Below are positions 3,106 through 30,518 of a stretch of 64,000 nt of DNA, one piece after another. Position numbers and translations under genes: made by a program. This stretch comes from an uncultured Bacillota bacterium (GTDB lineage Bacteria > Bacillota_I > Bacilli_A > RFN20 > CAG-449), in assembly GCA_905204225.1 (NCBI GenBank), contig CAJKZK010000001.1:4506-68505 (forward strand), in the 5' to 3' direction. The notes below the pieces were generated by a model, which worked only from the letters and a program-made list of their open reading frames with translations, made no database searches and was not told the origin of the DNA. Each line of letters opens with the position of its first letter. Position 1 is the first letter of the stretch.

Positions 3106-3603
3106 CTACACGATAATATCATCATCAGGAGTAGATGAAGAATTAACAATTTTTATTCTAACATAATTAGGCATACAAACTAATGGTGGATTATTTGGGT
3201 TGGAAATAGAACCTTGGTTTGAGCATATATGATTTGGTGATGTTTCTTTAACAATGGTTACTTTTTTATTGTTTATTTCGATTACTAAATCGTCTAATAA
3301 TAATGAATTATTTGCAAATTTTCTATCACTTGTAGTTGGATAAATATCATCATATTTATTTGATATGTCTTCTTTGAATAATATAATATATCTAGGATCT
3401 AAATCGTCTTTAGAAGGAGCTAAATCTGTTTTATAAATAACTTTGTTATCATAATATACTTCTACTTTAGCATTATCATTATTACTAGGAAATAAATAAA
3501 TAAAAAGTGTAAAAAATAAAGATATAAAAACGGTTGAAATAATGACAATTATATCAACTTTATTCCAGTCTAAGGCGAATGTTTTTTTGCTTTCTATTCT
3601 CAT
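3106..3603 (-). CDS. NusG domain II-containing membrane-anchored protein
   Basis: N-terminal TM helix plus a C-terminal domain with ICSNQG...LVCMPN motifs. Typical partner of Gx transporter genes. Confidence 0.45.
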   Translation of the reverse strand: MRIESKKTFALDWNKVDIIVIISTVFISLFFTLFIYLFPSNNDNAKVEVYYDNKVIYKTDLAPSKDDLDPRYIILFKEDISNKYDDIYPTTSDRKFANNSLLLDDLVIEINNKKVTIVKETSPNHICSNQGSISNPNNPPLVCMPNYVRIKIVNSSSTPDDDIIV

Positions 3604-5003: not shown

Positions 5004-5359
5004 TTAAAATCCCTCAAGCATAATTATGATAGTCTATAAGAAAGGTTTTGACAATATTTTATTATTTATACAAAATTTTATTTATTTGTATGAAGCAAAA
5101 AGAAACACGGAAAGGAGTTGTCATTAATACGCGTGCATGCGCGTTATTATCATATAAACAAAAAAATAAAATAAAAAATTGTAAATAAATTGTTGACATC
5201 TTCTTTTCTATATAGTAATCTTTAAAAGGTTGACGCCTATTATAGTCACCACGTTGACGTGTAAGATTGCTAAACACGGATGTCCGTTGTCAACAGGAAG
5301 TTTAGGTCACTTACATCGAGTGGAATGTCTAGCCAGATTTAGACAAGGAGGAAATTAAA
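5004..5359. promoter_or_regulatory. 356-bp divergent intergenic region between the ApbE operon and rpsJ, containing promoter elements and a structured rpsJ 5' leader
   Basis: TTGACA at 5193. Repeated GTTGAC(G) motifs and short hairpins at 5250-5300. GC-rich ACGCGTGCATGCGCGT element at 5129-5144. RBS AGGAGG just before the rpsJ ATG. Confidence 0.4.
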
Positions 5360-10493: not shown

Positions 10494-10868
10494 ATGGTTC
10501 AAAATGAAACAAATATGGTTGTCGCTGACAACTCAGGTGCTAAATCTGTCCGTATCTTCCGTCTTTATGGCGGTTCAAAAAGAAAATCTTCAACAATTGG
10601 TGATATCGTTCTTTGCTCAGTAAAGTCTGCTATTCCAAATGCTAAAGTTAAAAAGGGTGATGTCGTTAAGGCAGTTATCGTTAGAACTAAAAAAGGTATT
10701 AACCGTGAAAATGGTTCATACATTGCATTCGATGATAATGCAGTTGTCTTAATTAATGAAGATGGATCCCCACGTGGAACACGTGTCTTTGGACCTGTTG
10801 CTCGTGAACTTCGTGATAAGGGAGAAGGATTTATGAAAATAGTTTCTCTCGCTCTTGAAGTATTATAA
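10494..10868 (+). CDS. rplN: 50S ribosomal protein L14
   Basis: L14 sequence. Confidence 0.95.
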
Positions 10869-19382: not shown

Positions 19383-19778
19383 ATGGGTACAATAGGACGT
19401 AAAAATGTTCATGGTAAAGGTGGCGTTCGTTTCAAAGCTGGCTTTACTGCAAGTAAGAACAAATCATTATTAAGAAATTTAGTTACTGATTTAATTCAAT
19501 ATGGCAAAGTAGAAACCACTTTAGCAACTGCTAAAGAATTATCACGTTTAGCTGATCGTTTAGTAACATACGGCAAAAAAGGCGATTTAAATTCACGTCG
19601 TTTAGCTGCAGCAATTGTTAGAAATGAAAAAGCTGGTGATGTCACTGCATTAAAGAAATTATTTGATGAAATTGCTCCATCATATAAAGATCGTAATGGC
19701 GGATATACTTCTGTTTTAAAAACAGGTGTCCGTAAAGGTGATAATGCTCCTACAGCATTAATTACTTGGGTTAAGTAA
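19383..19778 (+). CDS. rplQ: 50S ribosomal protein L17
   Basis: L17 sequence. Confidence 0.95.
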   Translation: MGTIGRKNVHGKGGVRFKAGFTASKNKSLLRNLVTDLIQYGKVETTLATAKELSRLADRLVTYGKKGDLNSRRLAAAIVRNEKAGDVTALKKLFDEIAPSYKDRNGGYTSVLKTGVRKGDNAPTALITWVK

Positions 19779-19792
19779 TTATCTTAATTTGT

Positions 19793-19818
19793 AAAACGCA
19801 CTTCGGTGCGTTTTTATT
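19793..19818 (+). terminator. Rho-independent terminator after rplQ (stem CGCAC/GTGCG, loop TTCG, T-run). This is copy 1 of a duplicated 35-nt element.
   Basis: aaaacgcacttcggtgcgtttttattatgcttaaa, read directly from the sequence. Confidence 0.8.
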
Positions 19819-19840
19819 ATGCTTAAAAATAAAACTTAAT

Positions 19841-19871
19841 TTGACAAACTAGACGGGGGGGGGGTTATAAT
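19841..19871 (+). promoter_or_regulatory. Sigma-A-type promoter with perfect TTGACA (19841-19846) and TATAAT (19866-19871) hexamers and a 19-bp spacer containing a G10 tract (19855-19864)
   Basis: Hexamers and homopolymer read directly. Lies about 25 bp upstream of the LytTR regulator start. Confidence 0.6.
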
Positions 19872-19896
19872 TTTGTTAATATTAATGAGGTGTTTA

Positions 19897-20610
19897 ATGA
19901 TTAGGATTGCTATAGTAGATGATGATACTACCGATGCAGAAACATTAGAAAATATTTTAAAAAAATATGAAAAAGAACATTCTAATGTTAATTTTTACAT
20001 TAAAAAATTTTCTACAGCAATTGCTTTTTTAGATAAATATCAACCATTTGATATAGTTTTTATGGATATTGAAATGCCAACAATGACAGGTATGGAAGCA
20101 TGTTATAAACTAAGAGAAATTGATCAAACAATAGCAATTATATTTGTCACAAATATGGCACAATTTGCAGTTGAAGGTTATATTGTTAGAGCATTTGATT
20201 TTGCAGTTAAGCCAATTAGTTATGGTAATTTGGCGTTAAAATTAGATAGAGTAATAGAGTATATTTCTCATTTTACTGGGAAAATAATACATATTAAAAC
20301 ACCTGAAAAAACATTACAAATTTCTTTAGAAGAAATTATTTATATTGATATTTATAATTATATTCTTACATATCATACTATTAATGATAAAATCGATGTA
20401 ACTACTACAAGCTTATTAGATATAGAAAAACAATTAATAAATTATGGATTTTTTAAAATCAATAGAAGTACAATAGTTAATCTAAAATATATAAAATCTG
20501 TTAAAGATACATTAGTTGATGTTAATGGTAATATTTTAACTTTATCAAGAAGAAGAAAAAAAGAATTTATGGAAAAATTAACAGAATATTTTGGAGAAAG
20601 CAATATTTAA
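19897..20610 (+). CDS. LytTR-family response regulator (receiver domain plus LytTR DNA-binding domain). Start taken at the ATG at 19897 (MIRIAIVDDD).
   Basis: Receiver aspartate context IVFMDIEMP. C-terminal LytTR-like region. RBS GAGG. Confidence 0.8.
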   Translation: MIRIAIVDDDTTDAETLENILKKYEKEHSNVNFYIKKFSTAIAFLDKYQPFDIVFMDIEMPTMTGMEACYKLREIDQTIAIIFVTNMAQFAVEGYIVRAFDFAVKPISYGNLALKLDRVIEYISHFTGKIIHIKTPEKTLQISLEEIIYIDIYNYILTYHTINDKIDVTTTSLLDIEKQLINYGFFKINRSTIVNLKYIKSVKDTLVDVNGNILTLSRRRKKEFMEKLTEYFGESNI

Positions 20611-20611
20611 T

Positions 20612-21964
20612 ATGTCAAATTTATTTTTCTTTAGACCCTTATTTATGTTAGAACTAATTTTAGCAGAAGCAATGTTTCTTTCAAAATTAAATATAAGAAC
20701 TAATTTTTTTATAAGATTGATTATTTCTTTGATTTTTTGCTTTGGTGTTTCTTTTATTTTACCAACAAATTTTGAAAATATTTATTATTATTCTTTTTTA
20801 TTTTTAATAATGTTTTTGGTTACTATTATAGCGAGTATGTTTTGTTTTAAAGCACCTCTTAAAAATATTTTATTTTGTGCAATTGCTGGATATACTATAC
20901 AACATATTGCTTCAGAATGTTATGAAATGTTTAATAATTATATGAACTTGATTATTGAAAAATCATTTAATTTTTATGATGCTGAAGGCACTATTGATAT
21001 AAATGCACAAAATTATTTCTTTTTATTAGTCTATTTTGCTATTTTTGTAATTATTTATGGCTTAGTATATTATTTAATTGTACCTAAAGTTGAAAAATAC
21101 AAAGTTTTACAAACTAACAATAAAGTAATATTATCTTTATCAATTTTTATTGTTTTAATTGATGTTATTATAGGAGCAATAATTTTATTTATTTTACCTG
21201 AAAAATATTTAGTGTCATTATCAAAATTAGTAAAATTTAGTGTATATTTTTTATTACATTTTTATAACATTTTATGTTGTGTTTTAGCAATAGTATTATT
21301 AATTGAGCTACCTCGCCGTAGTAGTGCGGAAAGTGATTTAATAACTGTTAATAAATTATATAAAATAGAACAATCACAATACAATTCAGTAAAAGAAAAT
21401 TTAGATTTAATTAATATTAAATGTCACGATTTAAAGCATCAAATGAGAAATATACTTAATAATAAACAAGTAGACACAAGTGAAATAAATAAAATAGAGC
21501 AAGCAATTGATATTTATGATTCTACATATAAAACAAAAAATGAAGCATTAAATATTGTATTAATGGAAAAAGGGTTAATATGTAAAAAAAATAAAATCGA
21601 ATTAACTTGTATAATAGATGCATCAAAATTATCTTTTATTAAAGATAATGATATTTATTCATTATTTGGCAATTTATTAGATAATGCGATTGAGGCAGTA
21701 AAAAATCTTGAACAAAGTAAAAGAGTAATTAGTTTGCAAATAAAGAATAGTGGAGAATTTTTAATTATAAAAACATATAATAATTATAATGGAAAAATCA
21801 ACTTTGTTAATAATTTACCAATTACAACAAAAGAAGATAAAGATTATCATGGATATGGATTAAAAAGCATTAATTATATTGTTAAATCTTATGATGGACA
21901 AATGAAAATAAAAACTAATAATCAAGTTTTTGATTTGACAATTCTTTTTCAAACAAACAAATAA
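20612..21964 (+). CDS. AgrC/HPK10-like membrane sensor histidine kinase (about 6 TM helices plus GHKL ATPase)
   Basis: N-terminal polytopic region. H-box KCHDLKHQ. C-terminal LLDNAIEA...HGYGL GHKL motifs. Translationally coupled to the upstream response regulator. Confidence 0.7.
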   Translation: MSNLFFFRPLFMLELILAEAMFLSKLNIRTNFFIRLIISLIFCFGVSFILPTNFENIYYYSFLFLIMFLVTIIASMFCFKAPLKNILFCAIAGYTIQHIASECYEMFNNYMNLIIEKSFNFYDAEGTIDINAQNYFFLLVYFAIFVIIYGLVYYLIVPKVEKYKVLQTNNKVILSLSIFIVLIDVIIGAIILFILPEKYLVSLSKLVKFSVYFLLHFYNILCCVLAIVLLIELPRRSSAESDLITVNKLYKIEQSQYNSVKENLDLINIKCHDLKHQMRNILNNKQVDTSEINKIEQAIDIYDSTYKTKNEALNIVLMEKGLICKKNKIELTCIIDASKLSFIKDNDIYSLFGNLLDNAIEAVKNLEQSKRVISLQIKNSGEFLIIKTYNNYNGKINFVNNLPITTKEDKDYHGYGLKSINYIVKSYDGQMKIKTNNQVFDLTILFQTNK

Positions 21965-21968
21965 ATAC

Positions 21969-21999
21969 CATTCACAAGATATAATAAATCATTCACAAG
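21969..21999 (+). promoter_or_regulatory. LytTR-box-like direct repeat: CATTCACAAG at 21969-21978 and 21990-21999, 21 bp between repeat starts, upstream of the 22088 lipoprotein gene
   Basis: Perfect 10-bp direct repeat read directly. This architecture is known for AgrA/ComE/PlnC operators. Confidence 0.5.
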
Positions 22000-22087
22000 T
22001 AAAGTATTTTCATTTCTTTACTTGTTTTTTATTATTAGTTCGCTTATAAAAGCAGTTTTTGTGCTTTTTAAGTAGAGGGAGGAAAAT

Positions 22088-23638
22088 ATGAAAATTAAAT
22101 CAAAACTTTTACTTTTGATTTCATTTATGTTGCCAATTTTTTCGTTAACAAGTTGTAATGAAACTCCTAAACATGTTTGTAATGAACCATGTCCAACATG
22201 TGGAGGTTGTCTTGATAATAAATGTCAAGAAGAAGCATGCTTAACAAAATGTAGTTGTGAAGTAATAGTTAAATCAGTGGATATAACAAGTATGCCGTTA
22301 AAAACAAATTATTATCCAGGAGAGATTTTTTCACCTGAAGGTTTAGTGGTTAAAGCTAATTTATCAAATGGAAAAACAAAAAAATATAGTTATAGAAAAT
22401 TTGATACTTGGACTCATAAGGACGAACCATTAACTGAAGATATTAAAAAAATCACTTTTACAATTCCGAAATATAATTTTGATTTTGATGTAGAGATTAA
22501 AGTTGAATTACCTAATGATTTATCTATTGTTGTTGATAAAAGTTTACTAAAAGAAACATATTTAACTACTGATATTATTGATTTTACAATAATAAATGTT
22601 AGAGCTAAAATTGGTGAAACAATGACTTTGCTAAAAGCTGATCAATGGAAATTATATGATGGTACAAATCTTATCGAAGATAAAACACAGGTAAGTCTAA
22701 GTGAAGGTGAACATTTAATAAAAATTGAATATGTACCAACTGTTGATTATAGTTTTACTTTAAAAATAAATGATCCAAATAATGTTATTTCTCCAGATCA
22801 TGTTGAAGCAGAAGATTGTGTTTATAATATAGACTCAAACGCACCATACACAATTAAAGAAAAAGTTGCAAATGCTCAATATCCTGATGAAAATGGTAAT
22901 TTATCAGATCAATTATTTAAAAAAATACCAAATGGAGCAAGTGGTACAGGAGCAGTTTCATCATTATCTGCATCACAAAATGGTAAGAATGTCTATTTTA
23001 AATTTAATATTAAAGTTCCTACAACTGGCGAATATGATTTATTAGCAAGAGTGCAAGGAACAGGTGAAAATCAAATTAAAAATAATTTTAAAGTTTCTAT
23101 TAATAATGGTGAAGAAATGATTTCAACAAGCACTGATACAATTCATGCTGGTAATCAAATTAAAAATCAATATGGTAAAGAAGGTTTTATTGGTTGGTAT
23201 AACATGTTTTGGTGGAATGTTGTCAATATTGGAACATATTCACTTACAAAAGGTGATAATGAAATAAAAATTACAATGCCAAAAGGATTAGGTGGAAATA
23301 TTGATTATTTTGAAGTTGTAAGTAAAGGTGAAATACATGAAACTCAATTATTTAGTATGAGAGAAGGAAGTAGAGTAAATTTATCAACAAATCCAATTTA
23401 TTTAAAATATGGTGAAAAATTAATAGATAAAGTAGCTACACCAATTGGTCACCCATGTAAATATACATTAATTTATTTAAGACTAGATGATGGTTGTGAA
23501 ATTCCTGTAACTGAAGATTTAATGAACGAAATTGATTATACCAAAACTGGTGAGCAAGAAGTAAATATAACATTTACTAAAAAAGAAAAAACATATAATG
23601 CTTCATTCAAAATAATAATTGAAGCTGAAGAAGAATAG
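22088..23638 (+). CDS. Surface lipoprotein with a Cys-rich N-terminal segment, a CBM6/CBM35-like carbohydrate-binding module and an Ig-like domain
   Basis: Lipobox LTSC. 10 Cys within about 35 aa after the signal peptide. EAEDCVY...GEYDLLARVQG...WWN...NIDYFEV jelly-roll motif shared with the next gene. Confidence 0.6.
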   Translation: MKIKSKLLLLISFMLPIFSLTSCNETPKHVCNEPCPTCGGCLDNKCQEEACLTKCSCEVIVKSVDITSMPLKTNYYPGEIFSPEGLVVKANLSNGKTKKYSYRKFDTWTHKDEPLTEDIKKITFTIPKYNFDFDVEIKVELPNDLSIVVDKSLLKETYLTTDIIDFTIINVRAKIGETMTLLKADQWKLYDGTNLIEDKTQVSLSEGEHLIKIEYVPTVDYSFTLKINDPNNVISPDHVEAEDCVYNIDSNAPYTIKEKVANAQYPDENGNLSDQLFKKIPNGASGTGAVSSLSASQNGKNVYFKFNIKVPTTGEYDLLARVQGTGENQIKNNFKVSINNGEEMISTSTDTIHAGNQIKNQYGKEGFIGWYNMFWWNVVNIGTYSLTKGDNEIKITMPKGLGGNIDYFEVVSKGEIHETQLFSMREGSRVNLSTNPIYLKYGEKLIDKVATPIGHPCKYTLIYLRLDDGCEIPVTEDLMNEIDYTKTGEQEVNITFTKKEKTYNASFKIIIEAEEE

Positions 23639-23648
23639 AGGAAAAAAT

Positions 23649-23780
23649 ATGGAAAAAAATATGTATTACACTCCAATTATAAGTGTAAAGAAAATTAATT
23701 TAGATGATGTAATTTGTGTCTCTTTTGATACAAAAGATGAAAATAACATTTATCAAAATGTTGATGTAACATTGGATTAA
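23649..23780 (+). CDS. Unannotated 43-aa ORF (MEKNMYYTPIISVKKINLDDVICVSFDTKDENNIYQNVDVTLD) with strong RBS AGAGGA, exactly filling the gap between the two CBM-protein genes
   Basis: ATG 8 nt after the RBS. Has a homologue at 33343-33480. No signal peptide. Confidence 0.4.
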   Translation: MEKNMYYTPIISVKKINLDDVICVSFDTKDENNIYQNVDVTLD

Positions 23781-23794
23781 GATGAGGTTATAAA

Positions 23795-26032
23795 ATGAAA
23801 AAATATAATAAATTAATGATATTATCATTATCAATGTTAATGATGATACCTTCAATAATTGTTAATAATGAAAACTCATTAATATGTTCTACAACTGATG
23901 TATTTAATGAAAAAGCACATATTGAAACAAGATTACTTAATCAATTAACTGATACTAATGAAACTGTAAAATGTTCTAATATGTATGTACAATATGGTTA
24001 TGATGGAACTAATTATTATTTAAGATACGCTACTGCAATTAAAGGTGATATTGAAACATTAAATTACAAAATGTTTATTAATGATGAAGAATATATTGCT
24101 GGAGAAAAAAATGCAGATGTTTTATACAAAAGCATATTATCTAATGGTACTAGACAATATTATAATGGTAACGAATTAACAACTACTCCAACTGAATATT
24201 TATGGACTTGCTATACTATAAAATTTGCTAGTGAAAAACATCAAGCAGATAATATAGCTGTTTATTTAAATATAAATAATGCAAACACTGTTTCTAAATC
24301 AACATCATTATTAGAAGAAATGAATGTTGAACCAGATCATATTGAAGCAGAAGATTGTGTTTATTTACTTGAAAATGATAATAAATACACTTTAAGTGAA
24401 GCTTCAGCAAATGCTCAATATCCTGATGAAAATGGTAATTTATCAGATCAATTATTTAAACAAATACCAAATGGAGCAAGTGGTAAAGGTGCAGTTTCTT
24501 CATTATCTAAAGGACAAAATGGTACAAAAGTATATTTTGAATTTACTGTTAACGCTCCAACTTCTGGAGAATATGAACTTTTAGCGAGAGTACAAGGAAC
24601 AGGTGAAAGCTCAATTAATGGATTATTTAATGTAAGTATTAATGGTGAAGAAGGAACTTTAAATACTTCAAATGATAAAATACTTAAAGGTAATCAATTA
24701 AAAGAACAATATAACACATCTAGTGATTATTTGAGTTGGTATAACATGTTTTGGTGGAATATGGTTAATATTGGAACATATTCTTTAAATAAAGGTGAAA
24801 ACACAATAAAAATCACATTGCCTAATGGATTAAGTGGTAATATTGATTATTTTGAAATTCAAAACAAAAATAGTGCAAAAACATCTAAAATTTTCAGTTT
24901 TAGAGAAGGATCAAGAAATGAATTATCAACAAATAATGGATTAACTTTAATTGAAAATGGATTATTATCTGATAAGTCTGGTACTCCAGCAAATCACCCT
25001 TGTAAATATACTTTAATGTATATAAGATTATTAGATGGTAGTGAACACCCAATTACTGAAGAAATGTTAACTAATTATAGTAATATTGATTATACAAAAG
25101 TTGACCAAGAACAAATTGTAACAATTAATTATAAAGAAAATACAGCGTCTTTTAAATTATTTATTGTTAAAGAAAATTATGATATTTATGAAGCAGAAGA
25201 TAATGTTTATAAGTATAAAAATGGAGAAGAAACCACAAATAAATATGCTTCAGTTAACAATTTAACTAATATAGAATATTATGAAAATGAAACATTAAAG
25301 TCAGAACAAACTAAAGATGGCTCAAGCAATAAAAAAGTTATAGCTTTAGGTGCAGGTGCTAGCAATCATGGTAAAGAAGTTTTCTTTAAATTTGAAGTAA
25401 ATGTACAAGAAACAAAAGATTATTATTTATTTTCAAGATTACAATCTTCAAATGAAAATGATTTGATTAATTGTTTTGAAATTAATATAAATGAAGAAAA
25501 AGATGAAAATGGAAAATTAAAATATTATAAAAATAATTATAGTCAAATTCCTTCATTATGTAATCAAACAACAACATTTAATAATGTATGGAATAATGCA
25601 ATGTGGTTTGGTATGGCAAATTTAGGAAAAATTCATTTAACTAAAGGAAACAATATAATTAGAGTTCGTATGCCAAATGGAATAAGTGCGAATATTGATT
25701 TCTTCCAAGTTAGAGAAACAGATTCATTTGGTGCAAATTTATTTACAGTAAGAGATGGATCACATACTAAACTTGATTCATTAACACTTGAAAAAAATCA
25801 AAAAATTACTGATATTATTTCAACTCCTAGTGCACACCCATATCAATATACATTAATGTATTTAAGATTACCAAATGGTAATGAGTATCCTGTTGTTACA
25901 AAACCTAGCGAAGGAACAAATGTAAATTATGTTGGTGTTTTAAGTGATATTGATTATACTTTATCTTCTCAAAAAGTCACCGTTACTAACGGAAATTACA
26001 AATTATCATTTACTTTAAATATAAATTTATAG
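23795..26032 (+). CDS. Secreted surface protein with two CBM6/CBM35-like modules and Ig-like domains (paralogue of the 22088 gene)
   Basis: Signal peptide. Two copies of the EAED...YxLxxRxQ...WxN...NIDxF module, the first closely similar to the 22088 protein. Confidence 0.6.
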   Translation: MKKYNKLMILSLSMLMMIPSIIVNNENSLICSTTDVFNEKAHIETRLLNQLTDTNETVKCSNMYVQYGYDGTNYYLRYATAIKGDIETLNYKMFINDEEYIAGEKNADVLYKSILSNGTRQYYNGNELTTTPTEYLWTCYTIKFASEKHQADNIAVYLNINNANTVSKSTSLLEEMNVEPDHIEAEDCVYLLENDNKYTLSEASANAQYPDENGNLSDQLFKQIPNGASGKGAVSSLSKGQNGTKVYFEFTVNAPTSGEYELLARVQGTGESSINGLFNVSINGEEGTLNTSNDKILKGNQLKEQYNTSSDYLSWYNMFWWNMVNIGTYSLNKGENTIKITLPNGLSGNIDYFEIQNKNSAKTSKIFSFREGSRNELSTNNGLTLIENGLLSDKSGTPANHPCKYTLMYIRLLDGSEHPITEEMLTNYSNIDYTKVDQEQIVTINYKENTASFKLFIVKENYDIYEAEDNVYKYKNGEETTNKYASVNNLTNIEYYENETLKSEQTKDGSSNKKVIALGAGASNHGKEVFFKFEVNVQETKDYYLFSRLQSSNENDLINCFEININEEKDENGKLKYYKNNYSQIPSLCNQTTTFNNVWNNAMWFGMANLGKIHLTKGNNIIRVRMPNGISANIDFFQVRETDSFGANLFTVRDGSHTKLDSLTLEKNQKITDIISTPSAHPYQYTLMYLRLPNGNEYPVVTKPSEGTNVNYVGVLSDIDYTLSSQKVTVTNGNYKLSFTLNINL

Positions 26033-26040
26033 GTTTAAAT

Positions 26041-29000
26041 ATGGAAAAATCACTTTTAAGAAAAGTAATTATTTTACCTTGCATGGCCGTAATATTAGCT
26101 GGCCTTGCAGTAGGTAATTACGAATGTTATATTCATGAAAATGAAATTACATCTCAACTTGTTCCTGCTAAAATAACTTATGATAATTCAAAATTATCAG
26201 AAGCACAAATGGCGGCAGGTAATGTTGTCAATCAAATAGCTCAAGAAGGTATGACATTAATGAAAAATGATGGAACATTACCTTTAGAAATTGATGAAGA
26301 CGATGAAGATGGTTATCCAATCAATTTATTTGGAATAGGAAGTACTGATGCCGAAAATGGCTTTTACTTATTTGGTGGTGGCTCTGGTTCTGTAACTTTA
26401 TATGATAAAGATAAAGTTACTTTACAACAAGGAATTGAACAAGCTGGCTTTGAAGTTAATACTTCCTTACTAAATTTCTTTAAAGAAGAAGGAGAAAATC
26501 CTAAAGAAAGTTGGTGGGAAAAAGAACAAAATATTCTTAAATCAGCAAAAGCATTTTCTGATACAGCTGTAGTAACTATATCAAGATTTACTGGTGAAAA
26601 TTGTGATGCTGATGAAAATACAACTGATCAAACTTCATATTCATTTAGTAAACCTTATCAAGCATCTTATAATGATAATGATTTAGATGGTAGAAATTTT
26701 TGTCAATTATCATTAAGAGAAGAAGCTATGTTAAAGTGGGTTAGCAATAATTTTGGTGAAGTAATAGTTTTAATCAATAGTGGAAACATGATGGAATTAG
26801 GTTTTTTAGACAATCCTAAAATTAATGCTATTTTGTATACTTCATATCCAGGAAAATCTGGAACAAAAGCAATAGGAGATATTCTAGCTGGAAAAGTAAA
26901 TCCAAGTGGACATTTAACTGATACTTTTGTTTATGATACCAAAAGTGATCCAACATGGGCTAATGTTATTGCTAAAAAAGATAATGGTACACAAATTCAC
27001 TATGTAGAAGATATTTATACTGGGTATAGATGGTATGAAACAGCTGACAAAGAAGGATATTTTAATTCTATTGGTAAAAACTATAATGAAGTTGTTTTTA
27101 GACCATTTGGATATGGATTATCTTATACAACATTTGAATGGAATTTTAAAAATATTTCTTTTAAAAATGGTGATACAATTATACCAGCAATTAATGGAGA
27201 TAATGTTAAAGATAAAGATACAAAAATTTTAATTCAGGTTGAAGTAAAAAATACTGGATTAGTCGCTGGTAAAGATGTTGTTCAATTATATTACACCGCA
27301 CCATACACAAAAGGTGGTATTGAAAAAGCGTATGTTAATTTAGTTGCATTTGAAAAAACAGAGATGCTATATCCACTTTCTCAATCAAGTGAAGACAAGC
27401 CGAATAGTCAAATTTTGTCTTTAGAATTTAGCTTGTATGATATGGCAAGTTATGATGCTTATGATAAAAATAAAAATAATTTTACAGGGTATGAACTTGA
27501 AAAAGGTGAATATCAATTAAAATTACAAAATAATGCTCATGAATTAAATAAGTGTGAAAATAGTACTATTAAAATAAATTTAACTAATGATTTAAAATGG
27601 GATAAAGATCCAAATACAAATGGAACTATAAAAAATAGATTTACAGGTTCGACAGCTGAAAACAATATTCCAATTGATGGTAATAATAATGGTGAAAAAA
27701 TAACATATTTGTCAAGAGCAGATTTTTTATCAACATTTCCAAAAACAACTACTCCAAATAGAACTTCAGGAGCAGATTCTACTAAAGATGGAACTTATGT
27801 TACAGATGAAGAATATTATAAAGATATTACAATGCCAACTTTAAATAGTACTGAAACAAATTTATTATTATATACTTTAGAAAATGGTGAAAAAGCGTCA
27901 ACTAATGATTTAAGTGGATATACAAACAATAAAATAATTCCTAACGAAGAATTAATTTTAAAATTAGGTGAAAACTATGATGCACCTGAATGGGAACAAT
28001 TATTGAATCAATTATCATATATAGAAATAGTTGATATTGTTGCTCGTTGTAGTTGTGGAACAGCTCCAGCTGAATCTATTGGAAAACCTAAAACAAGAGT
28101 TTTTGATGGACCTCAAGGAATTAACAATTCAACACTTTCTCCAGAACAATTAGCTGATGTAACTGCATTTCCAGCTGAAACTTTAGTAGGTATGACTTTT
28201 AACAAAGAACTTGCTAGATTAGAAGGTGCGGCAATGGCAACTGAAGCTTCATTAACAGGAACAATAGGAATATATGCTCCAGCAGTTGATTTGCATCGTC
28301 ATGCTTATAATGGTAGAAATTATGAACAATATAGTGAAGATCCTTATTTATGTGGAATTATGGGTGGTAAAATGGCAACAGGTGCTATTACACATGGTTG
28401 TCAAGTCTCTATAAAACATTTTGTTTGTTCTCAACCTGGAAGAAATCCTAGAGACTATAATACATGGTTAACAGAACAAAATTTAAGAGAAAATTATCTA
28501 AAACCGTTTGAAATTGCTATTAAAGAAAGTAAAGCAAATTTCTTGATGACATCATTTAATAACATAGGCGGAGTAAGATGTGCTTATTCTTATCAATTGT
28601 TAAATGGAGTATTAAGAGAAGAATGGGGATTCAAAGGATCAATTATTACGGATTATGATGTTAATAGTGCATCAAGAACTACTGCAAATTTAATTAGATC
28701 TGGTAATGATTTAAGATTCCAAGGAAGTGTTGCTAATAGAGCAGAACTTGATAAAAACAATGTAGTTGATGTTTATTTAGCTAGACAATCTGTAAAAAGA
28801 GACTTATGGTCATTTTGTAATACATATTATAGAACTAAAAATTATGATCCAAATTACACGTCAACAAATGTTATTGTCACTCAACCATTTGTATGGTGGA
28901 TAATGGTAGTAATAATGATAGATGTGATAATTATAGGTGGAATTGGTGTAGGAATTTTCTTCTTATTTAAGCCAAAGAAAAAAGCACTAGTAAATAATAT

Positions 29001-29193
29001 TGAGACAGATAGTTCTCAAGAAAAATCTGAACATAAATTTTTATACAAAAAGAAAGAAAATCTTTCTTCAACTAGCGCTCAAAATGTTGTAATTGATAAT
29101 AACCAAGAAAAATTTTCTATATCAAAAAAAGATTATGAAGAACTCATTGATTTAATTGATAAATTACAAGATAAATTAAAAAAATTAAAATAA
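26041..29193 (+). CDS. Glycoside hydrolase family 3 (beta-glucosidase/xylosidase-like) with permuted domain order and N- and C-terminal TM anchors
   Basis: GH3 C-domain-like region first (MKNDGTLPL, VNPSGHL, FGYGLSYTTF), then GH3 N-domain motifs (KHF, GFKGSIITDYD with catalytic Asp). One TM helix near each terminus. Confidence 0.65.
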   Translation: MEKSLLRKVIILPCMAVILAGLAVGNYECYIHENEITSQLVPAKITYDNSKLSEAQMAAGNVVNQIAQEGMTLMKNDGTLPLEIDEDDEDGYPINLFGIGSTDAENGFYLFGGGSGSVTLYDKDKVTLQQGIEQAGFEVNTSLLNFFKEEGENPKESWWEKEQNILKSAKAFSDTAVVTISRFTGENCDADENTTDQTSYSFSKPYQASYNDNDLDGRNFCQLSLREEAMLKWVSNNFGEVIVLINSGNMMELGFLDNPKINAILYTSYPGKSGTKAIGDILAGKVNPSGHLTDTFVYDTKSDPTWANVIAKKDNGTQIHYVEDIYTGYRWYETADKEGYFNSIGKNYNEVVFRPFGYGLSYTTFEWNFKNISFKNGDTIIPAINGDNVKDKDTKILIQVEVKNTGLVAGKDVVQLYYTAPYTKGGIEKAYVNLVAFEKTEMLYPLSQSSEDKPNSQILSLEFSLYDMASYDAYDKNKNNFTGYELEKGEYQLKLQNNAHELNKCENSTIKINLTNDLKWDKDPNTNGTIKNRFTGSTAENNIPIDGNNNGEKITYLSRADFLSTFPKTTTPNRTSGADSTKDGTYVTDEEYYKDITMPTLNSTETNLLLYTLENGEKASTNDLSGYTNNKIIPNEELILKLGENYDAPEWEQLLNQLSYIEIVDIVARCSCGTAPAESIGKPKTRVFDGPQGINNSTLSPEQLADVTAFPAETLVGMTFNKELARLEGAAMATEASLTGTIGIYAPAVDLHRHAYNGRNYEQYSEDPYLCGIMGGKMATGAITHGCQVSIKHFVCSQPGRNPRDYNTWLTEQNLRENYLKPFEIAIKESKANFLMTSFNNIGGVRCAYSYQLLNGVLREEWGFKGSIITDYDVNSASRTTANLIRSGNDLRFQGSVANRAELDKNNVVDVYLARQSVKRDLWSFCNTYYRTKNYDPNYTSTNVIVTQPFVWWIMVVIMIDVIIIGGIGVGIFFLFKPKKKALVNNIETDSSQEKSEHKFLYKKKENLSSTSAQNVVIDNNQEKFSISKKDYEELIDLIDKLQDKLKKLK

Positions 29194-29198
29194 TTGTA

Positions 29199-29225
29199 TA
29201 AAACGCACTTTGGTGCGTTTTTATT
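29199..29225 (+). terminator. Rho-independent terminator after the GH3 gene. This is copy 2 of the duplicated 35-nt element (one loop base differs from the copy at 19793).
   Basis: aaaacgcactttggtgcgtttttattatgcttaaa, read directly from the sequence. Confidence 0.8.
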
Positions 29226-29365
29226 ATGCTTAAACTAAATATTATAATTTAGAAAAACAAACAAAAGAAATAAAATATGAAATTGTTAAAACTAGTAGTT
29301 ATATTGCAACTGCTGAAGAAATAATTCTTCAACCATTAAATTAATTCAAAAAATTATAAAATTTA

Positions 29366-30368: not shown

Positions 30369-30518
30369 CGTGTTGCAAATTTTAATGTTTTAATATATTA
30401 TAAATTTAGAGCCTGTACTTATTTCGTTATTGTAAGATAGTGCATAGTCAGGCCATTATTTTAAATTTTACCTCTTGTTATGCAAGAGGTTTTATAAATT
30501 AAAGAGGGATGAAACATT

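Follow-up and report, generated by a model that had tools for sequence, protein, structure and literature searches.

In Neisseria meningitidis, the porA promoter carries a poly-G tract between its −35 and −10 hexamers, and output follows the order 11G > 10G (2.2-fold lower) > 9G (13-fold lower) (PMC3639595). In porA and opc, a G (or C) homopolymer of about 9–12 nt lies between the hexamers, and slippage within this homopolymer changes the spacer length. A promoter of the same type is present in the window analyzed here, i.e., the whole stretch of 64,000 nt from an uncultured Bacillota bacterium, in which ten consecutive G residues (G10) separate a TTGACA from a TATAAT hexamer upstream of the genes for a LytTR-type response regulator and a histidine kinase. 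However, porA belongs to a Gram-negative pathogen and its tract directly controls an outer-membrane protein, whereas the window comes from uncultured gut Bacilli and its tract precedes a two-component pair, on whose expression its effect is predicted. As described below, the element is likely a phase-variable (contingency) promoter of the sigma-A type that drives the two-component operon.

Two further precedents concern transcription of surface structures. In Mycoplasma hyorhinis, indels in a promoter homopolymer switch transcription of the vlp lipoproteins (PMC10502178, citing Citti and Wise 1995). As far as that account goes, vlp differs from the window in that its tract is poly-A, its genes form a multigene family and no regulator stands between the switch and the lipoprotein; a direct analogue of vlp, to the extent that vlp is described there, is a second element of the window species (cassette B, see below), in which a poly-G promoter lies directly before a lipoprotein gene. 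M. hyorhinis and the window lineage, which was formerly filed under 'Mollicutes', are loosely related taxa. In Haemophilus influenzae hifA/hifB, a spacer repeat sets the −35/−10 distance in overlapping promoters (van Ham 1993, in PMC11868660), and in the form cited there the repeat is a TA dinucleotide, the promoters are divergent and the genes form a structural operon, in contrast to the window. The first-pass annotation had likened the architecture to that of promoters in Haemophilus, Neisseria and Mycoplasma, and the porA, hif and vlp precedents, as summarized in these sources, do match in mechanism. The mechanism is of the known porA/opc, hif and vlp kind; the organism and the wiring are new.

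Phase-variable signal-transduction systems include flgS/flgR of Campylobacter and cmrRST of C. difficile. To our knowledge, the known phase-variable two-component systems switch by coding frameshifts or inversions, and nearly all known cases of repeat-driven phase variation are in pathogens. A stochastic switch on a two-component system is also provided by the C-tract frameshift in bvgS of Bordetella pertussis, as cited in a later paper (Stibitz 1989, in PMC11868660). Unlike bvgS, flgS/flgR and cmrRST, in which a coding frameshift or an inversion acts in an all-or-none manner, the window varies in promoter spacing with its coding sequences intact, and a graded dosage would be expected. Literature searches turned up no poly-G promoter switch described for RF39, gut Firmicutes or former gut Mollicutes; one lead (PMC11032452) was set aside, as it mentions polyG only when citing Campylobacter phages. 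The window offers a textbook-type switch with natural allele data in an uncultured human-gut commensal, wired to signal transduction beside carbohydrate-active surface proteins. If this is confirmed, strain-level metagenomics would have to treat such tracts as functional states rather than assembly noise, and heterogeneity in glycan foraging or surface antigens would have a simple genetic explanation, one that is visible in the sequencing reads themselves.

The −35 hexamer TTGACA (19841–19846) and the −10 hexamer TATAAT (19866–19871) are both perfect and lie, like every window promoter, gene, terminator and repeat named here, on the forward strand. The 19-bp spacer between them (19847–19865) reads aactagac-G10-t, and the G10 homopolymer (19855–19864), which is on the non-template strand, is hypermutable in the assembly comparison below. 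These features agree exactly with the first-pass annotation, which had also given a GC content of about 30%; the GC content is indeed low, although the measured value for the 64 kb is 27.5%. As had likewise been supposed, G10 is improbable by chance: a G run of at least 10 has an expectation of ~5e-4 per window under independent, identically distributed bases, and apart from G10, no run of G or C in the 64 kb exceeds the 5 nt of two G5 runs. A perfect TTGACA-N15–21-TATAAT pair also occurs only once in the window when both strands are scanned. However, 45% of shuffled windows contain at least one perfect hexamer pair, showing that the pair alone is not rare, and the significance therefore comes from G10, its position and the comparative data.

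The −35 hexamer begins 26 nt past the intrinsic terminator of rplQ, and the −10 hexamer ends 25 nt before the regulator ATG (19897), with transcription predicted from the −10 position to start at ~19878–19880. The terminator (19793–19819, from a terminator scan) consists of a hairpin (19793–19814) with a 9-bp stem and a UUCG loop, followed by a T run; the hairpin folds as RNA at −11.3 kcal/mol (z = −3.5), and it would insulate the downstream promoter from the ribosomal operon. A promoter scan found no better promoter between the terminator and the regulator ATG, and an Rfam search of 19600–22200 found no family match, the only hit being a sub-threshold one to TarB over the terminator, which is taken as chance. 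The G tract very probably lies in a functional promoter.

The species is represented by 38 independent human-gut assemblies, made from different human samples, in which the tract was compared; they are ~96.7–100% identical to the window over alignments of 4–12.7 kb around the locus. The contigs were retrieved by exact-protein look-up with the regulator, two other regulator alleles, RplQ, RpoA and RplM. The tract ranges from G6 to G12 and the spacer from 14 to 21 bp. By contrast, hardly any change is seen in the flanks or in either hexamer: TTGACA is kept in 37 of 38 assemblies (TTGCCA in L017) and TATAAT in 36 of 38 (AATAAT in L003 and L017). In terms of G-run length, there is one G6 allele, five G7, four G8, 11 G9, ten G10, four G11 and two G12, together with a single interrupted allele (GGGTGGGAG, L004). 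In terms of spacing, 14 bp occurs once, 16 bp five times, 17 bp six times, 18 bp and 19 bp ten times each, 20 bp four times and 21 bp twice, the 14-bp allele combining G6 with the loss of the adjoining T. The first-pass annotation had proposed such a comparison of related genomes, with an invariant G10 as the outcome that would speak against a switch, and had reasoned that the loss of one or two G would bring the spacer to 17–18 bp; the tract varies as it predicted, and the G8 and G9 alleles occur naturally.

This polymorphism far exceeds background mutation. Ten A7/A8/T7 runs in the same 12 kb served as controls, none of which is variable. The assembly L009 has 0 mismatches to the window over 4,038 nt, yet the two spacers differ by 2 bp (17 bp in L009, 19 bp in the window); similarly, L011 and L020 are separated by 2 single-nucleotide polymorphisms in 3 kb and have tracts of G10 and G9, respectively. 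On a tree of 23 strains based on 3-kb flanks, the tract must have changed length independently at least 13 times (16 one-nt steps), compared with 0.12 changes per site at flanking sites on the same tree, and the lengths show both clade structure and homoplasy. Identical strains from replicate or related samples (L009/L104, L005/L007 and L018/L102) agree in length, and the lengths are therefore not random assembly noise. Contigs that end in or beside the tract (L006, L109, L265 and L267) fit either heterogeneity or poor reads and are weak evidence; together with the homoplasy, they hint only indirectly at frequent, reversible changes of length in a clonal population. Taken together, the invariant controls, the near-identical strains with differing lengths, the changes on the tree and the reproducible replicates indicate that the tract is almost certainly hypermutable in a genuine sense. 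Of the marks of promoter-spacer phase variation, a repeat between the hexamers and polymorphism well above background among close strains are both found at this locus; reversible length changes in a clonal population and transcription that follows tract length, its other marks, are predicted, the latter from the spacer rules of sigma-70/sigma-A promoters and the fixed 17-bp spacers of homologous operons. The interrupted allele of L004 (5946–5975 in that contig) has a fixed 18-bp spacer, TTGACAAACAAAACGGGTGGGAGTTATAAT, the core of which, CAAAACGGGTG, recurs in a homologous operon (L110) from an organism with 52% GC, where the spacer has an ordinary length of 17 bp; this allele may be ancestral or 'locked'.

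Homologous operons were found in five other taxa, with kinase identities of 47–56% and GC contents of 41–52%. The gene order of regulator, kinase and surface protein(s) is the same in all five, and a GH3 gene is also present in four. The G tract is not conserved in the kinase family, being absent from five homologous operons; in L110, L116, L248 and L250, the operon promoter is free of G tracts and has the form TTGACA-N17-(TG-extended) −10. This form supports the promoter assignment in the window and identifies 17 bp as the spacing with which the ancestral promoter worked. On this basis, G8 (17 bp) would be the strongest state, and G10–G12 as well as the shortest alleles would be weak. The range predicted to be active (16–18 bp) holds 21 of the 38 alleles, i.e., about half. 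By analogy with porA, the output is expected to be graded rather than binary. The earlier description of the element as a switch is borne out in so far as the promoter varies in length; however, because the allele distribution is unimodal around 18–19 bp, a porA-like rheostat fits better than a clean ON/OFF switch.

The first gene behind the promoter (19897–20610), preceded by the Shine–Dalgarno sequence GAGGTG (19887–19892), encodes a response regulator with receiver and LytTR domains (Pfam Response_reg PF00072, 7.8e-18; LytTR PF04397, 6.1e-13), and the receiver domain has D8–D10 and D57, including the phospho-acceptor Asp. The second gene starts 1 nt past the end of the first (20612–21964) and encodes a multi-pass membrane histidine kinase of 450 aa (Pfam HATPase_c_5 PF14501, 1.4e-25). 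Its residues 1–235 contain ~6–7 hydrophobic segments by hydropathy, followed by an H-box, CHDLKHQ (His272), and an N-box, LLDNAIE; the polytopic sensor, the H-box and the HATPase_c_5 GHKL domain are those of an AgrC/ComD-type (HPK10) kinase. More than 1,600 full-length homologues of the kinase were found, and its exact sequence had no record in the look-up. A PDB sequence search gave no match for the kinase and only generic receiver-domain matches for the regulator. Pfam thus confirms both the LytTR regulator and the kinase named in the first-pass annotation, with the term 'AgrC-like' holding at the domain level and not beyond it. No agrB/agrD, peptide-pheromone or ATP-binding cassette (ABC)-exporter genes were found at the locus, the operon consisting of the regulator and the kinase only. 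In these respects, and in having no autoregulatory site at its own promoter, the locus differs from known LytTR loci. An Agr quorum-sensing locus (agrBDCA) was rejected because agrB and agrD are missing at the locus. A phasevarion was rejected as well, as the switched genes encode a two-component system and not a methyltransferase; the likeness is functional only.

LytTR target promoters have two 9-bp direct repeats 12 bp apart, just upstream of a weak −35. In the window, perfect direct repeats of this form, ATTCACAAG-N12-ATTCACAAG, with a 21-bp period, lie between the kinase stop and the next gene (21970–21999) and make up a candidate LytTR site. The 9-mer has two copies in the 64 kb, both in this site; TRF independently detects the 21-nt period, and the repeats are invariant in all strains. 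The geometry is the same as that of the Staphylococcus agr P2/P3, plantaricin and ComE boxes (9-bp repeats with a 12-bp gap), whereas the repeat itself, of the type (A/G)TTCAC(A/C/G)(A/G)(G/A), differs from the ACAGTTAAG of known LytTR-regulated promoters. A putative regulator-dependent promoter, TTTTCA-17-TATTAT (22007–22035, from the promoter scan), begins 7 nt past the proximal repeat. The order of 9-mer, N12, 9-mer, 30 nt and a −10-like hexamer is the same in the window, L244, L110 and L116, and the 9-mer in the homologous cassettes begins with (A/G)TTCAC.

Judging from Pfam matches and gene order, the likely target operon (22088–29193) starts with the gene for a 516-aa lipoprotein (lipobox LTSC, Big_3 and weak matches to carbohydrate-binding modules (CBMs)). 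The lipoprotein gene is followed by the single small open reading frame (ORF) of the locus (43 aa, 23649–23780), which has no Pfam match, and by the genes for a paralogous CBM-like protein of 745 aa (23795–26032) and a GH3 glycosidase of 1050 aa (26041–29193), both assigned by Pfam. The 516-aa lipoprotein and the 745-aa protein have in common a paralogous segment of ~0.5–0.8 kb (22793–23314 and 24332–25144), which covers the CBM-like region and shows 76–83% DNA identity across strains. Since the repeat and −10 layout is conserved in divergent cassettes, as is the gene order, a regulon link is plausible, and we somewhat favour, on these sequence features, the view that the tract modulates the adjacent surface operon via the two-component system. 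The earlier suggestion that a whole regulon is switched is supported to the extent that LytTR-type repeats precede the adjacent operon and are conserved in homologous cassettes, the binding of the regulator being putative.

In the mechanism proposed here, slipped-strand mispairing at replication would add or remove G residues and thereby shift the spacer over ~14–21 bp. The G8 allele would give the canonical 17 bp, the fixed spacer of the homologous operons; in the G10–G12 alleles (19–21 bp) or the 14-bp allele, the hexamers would be misaligned and the promoter weakened. We infer that the promoter is used and that length affects its transcription, with changes that would be reversible within a population; tract length probably modulates expression of the two-component system. 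The outcome would be a heritable yet unstable, probably graded, dosage of the two-component system in each cell lineage. The regulator most likely activates the lipoprotein/CBM/GH3 operon via the ATTCACAAG-N12-ATTCACAAG repeats, so that the two-component system, when signalled, would switch on a surface module for glycan binding and degradation, and the tract would gate this module.

The rplQ–rplM interval, in which the promoter lies, was surveyed in L019 and L268–L277; it is a hotspot for cassettes and occurs in four forms in the species: cassette A only (the window), A and B together, B only (L019), and a degraded remnant of B. Island A is 9.4 kb long (19832–29235) and is flanked by a duplicated terminator sequence of ~38 bp, the second copy of which (29200–29235, near-identical to 19793–19830) forms the right boundary of the island. 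The L019 contig aligns to the window through 19831 and then again from 29236, and the strain alignment places a 3′ remnant of cassette B, i.e., the end of its lipoprotein gene, at 29236–29350 of the window. Cassette B consists of a gene for a lipoprotein of 619–629 aa with its own promoter, TTGACA-ttttattac-Gn-TAAGAT (L019 6450–6480; L271 ~1940–1972; L272 ~1908–1942; L274 ~1930–1960; L275/L276 ~3480–3510). Three strains carry G10 in this promoter and one carries G13; in two strains whose lipoprotein gene is degraded, the tract has an interruption (GGGGAGGTGGG/A).

A third promoter of this kind was found in a related genome. Among the GTDB representatives listed, the nearest relatives by RplQ are metagenome-assembled genomes (MAGs) named 'uncultured Bacilli/Mollicutes', Erysipelotrichaceae MAGs, and Ca. 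Enterosoma and Ca. Onthovivens, genera that GTDB may file under RF39; the closest RplQ among the matches listed is 78% identical ('uncultured Bacilli bacterium'). The MAG of Erysipelotrichaceae bacterium SIG216 (L023), with an RplQ 69% identical, carries TTGACA-aaattactc-G10-TATAAT with a 19-bp spacer (10573–10603), the sole such promoter in ~30 related 20-kb loci. It lies directly after rplQ and before a gene for an AraC-family regulator, which is followed by six lipoprotein genes, including esterase and Tyr-phosphatase-like ones. Thus, the design and the genomic position are the same as in the window, but the regulator is AraC instead of LytTR.

A scan of metagenome contigs with the pattern TTGACA-N6–10-G9 or longer-N0–3-TATAAT returned at least 120 stretches, from which 80 loci were kept (L124–L203), against a chance expectation roughly estimated to be of order ten. 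The 80 loci have tracts of G9–13 and GC contents of 0.26–0.66, with many from the human gut and many promoter families represented. Among the matches listed, 11 families have more than one member, and in 8 of these, contigs that share their flanks carry tracts of unequal length. Of the 61 distinct downstream proteins among the matches listed, 40 have signal-peptide-like N-termini, 15 of these with a lipobox; among the remaining ORFs of these loci, the background share is 20% (binomial p ~1e-14), although the heuristic is crude and the enrichment a rough estimate. The regulators found downstream, again among the matches listed, include PucR, Rrf2, MarR-like and response-regulator receiver-domain proteins. 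This repertoire of downstream genes is that expected of contingency loci, and the scan suggests that the window promoter is one example of a design common in gut Firmicutes. The broader proposal, that poly-G consensus sigma-A promoters form a widespread, undescribed contingency class in non-pathogenic gut Firmicutes, including uncultured Bacilli with reduced genomes, is tentative, with a chance slightly short of even. Under this proposal, the tracts stand mostly before lipoproteins, pilins and other secreted proteins, and repeatedly also before regulators. If it is true, promoter-spacing control of regulator dosage would produce phase-variable regulons, the foraging module of CBM lipoprotein and GH3 would be stochastically heterogeneous, and the rplQ–rplM interval would be a recombination hotspot that swaps poly-G cassettes.

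Several observations weigh against a phase-variable promoter with a selected role, and they have to be considered together with the alternatives. The allele distribution is unimodal at 18–19 bp and not bimodal, with 17 bp in just 6 of 38 assemblies, and such a distribution is also expected from mutation–drift at a weakly selected tract. The regulator or the kinase is disrupted in four strains: L103 (G8) has a regulator frameshift (A6 to A5 at ~19992–19997), L001 (G12) a kinase frameshift (A6 to A7 at ~21528–21534), L016 (G10) a CAAA insertion near the kinase 3′ end (CAAA repeats at 21949–21960) and L006 (G12) kinase stop codons. These broken alleles, which in four strains are too few for a correlation of tract length with gene integrity, hint at relaxed or negative selection. 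The tract, lying in an accessory island that would be decaying, might accordingly be seen as a neutral mutational hotspot, its length variation being drift with no selected role, and the absence or replacement of the island in some strains and the interrupted 'locked' alleles (L004; L275/L276) would also fit this explanation. However, at 27.5% GC there is very little chance that drift would create a G10 and then maintain it, three different promoters of this clade have the tract exactly between the hexamers, and many metagenome families have the same design with an enrichment for secreted proteins. Moreover, conservation of the hexamers contrasts with variation of the tract, and most strains have an intact regulator and kinase, all of which makes a neutral hotspot improbable. 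The assemblies report only the majority allele of each sample, and some ±1 differences in length could be Illumina homopolymer errors. An extension of this point, that all length differences are short-read or assembly artefacts of a tract that is in reality fixed, would be in line with the drop of Illumina accuracy in long G runs and with the four contigs that break in or next to the tract, but it has next to no probability: the range of 6–12 G far exceeds a ±1 consensus error, the length is reproduced where identical strains were recovered from replicate or related samples, the lengths have clade structure, the data span different assemblers and studies, and the control A/T tracts are invariant.

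Two other alternatives accept the variation and question its consequences. If the operon were transcribed from elsewhere, by rplQ read-through or from another promoter, the G tract would be a leader, protein-binding or structural element whose length is irrelevant. Although a perfect hexamer pair can arise by chance, as in 45% of the shuffles, this explanation is highly improbable given the strong terminator immediately upstream, the lack of a better promoter between this terminator and the ATG, and the TTGACA-N17-(−10) promoters at the equivalent place in homologous operons; in addition, the region has no Rfam family match, and the arrangement of hexamer, G tract and hexamer recurs widely. 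Alternatively, the tract may switch the two-component system only, with the lipoprotein/GH3 operon independently regulated and no phase-variable regulon. Two of the more distant homologues, L248 and L250, are without obvious repeats, and changes in protein dosage need not alter the output of a two-component system; in the window, too, the output may be partly buffered against protein level, which would count against a phase-variable promoter, as does the finding that autoregulatory LytTR boxes were looked for at the variable promoter and none was found. On the other side, the perfect 9-N12-9 repeats are unique in the 64 kb and lie 30 nt from the −10, as in three homologous cassettes, and the synteny with surface-protein and GH3 genes is kept across kinase identities of 47–56%. 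Independent regulation of the surface operon is thus rated unlikely, albeit with some real chance, and the phase-variable promoter acting through the two-component system remains the preferred explanation.

Some minor observations concern the vicinity of the promoter and the assemblies. In L253, L254 and L258–L260, an insertion sequence (IS) element of the rve family lies between rplQ and the poly-G promoter and replaces the terminator, and in L106–L108, unrelated sequence follows right after rplQ. A 'split' lipoprotein in L005 was traced to a scaffold gap of Ns, and runs of G17, G12 and C9 at a contig start, in L119 (49–92), most likely arose there through an error of sequencing or assembly. 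In place of the AGAGGGA of other strains, L273 has a G7 run (5050–5056, corresponding to ~30505–30515 of the window) in the ribosome-binding region of the 654-aa gene that lies downstream of rpsI.

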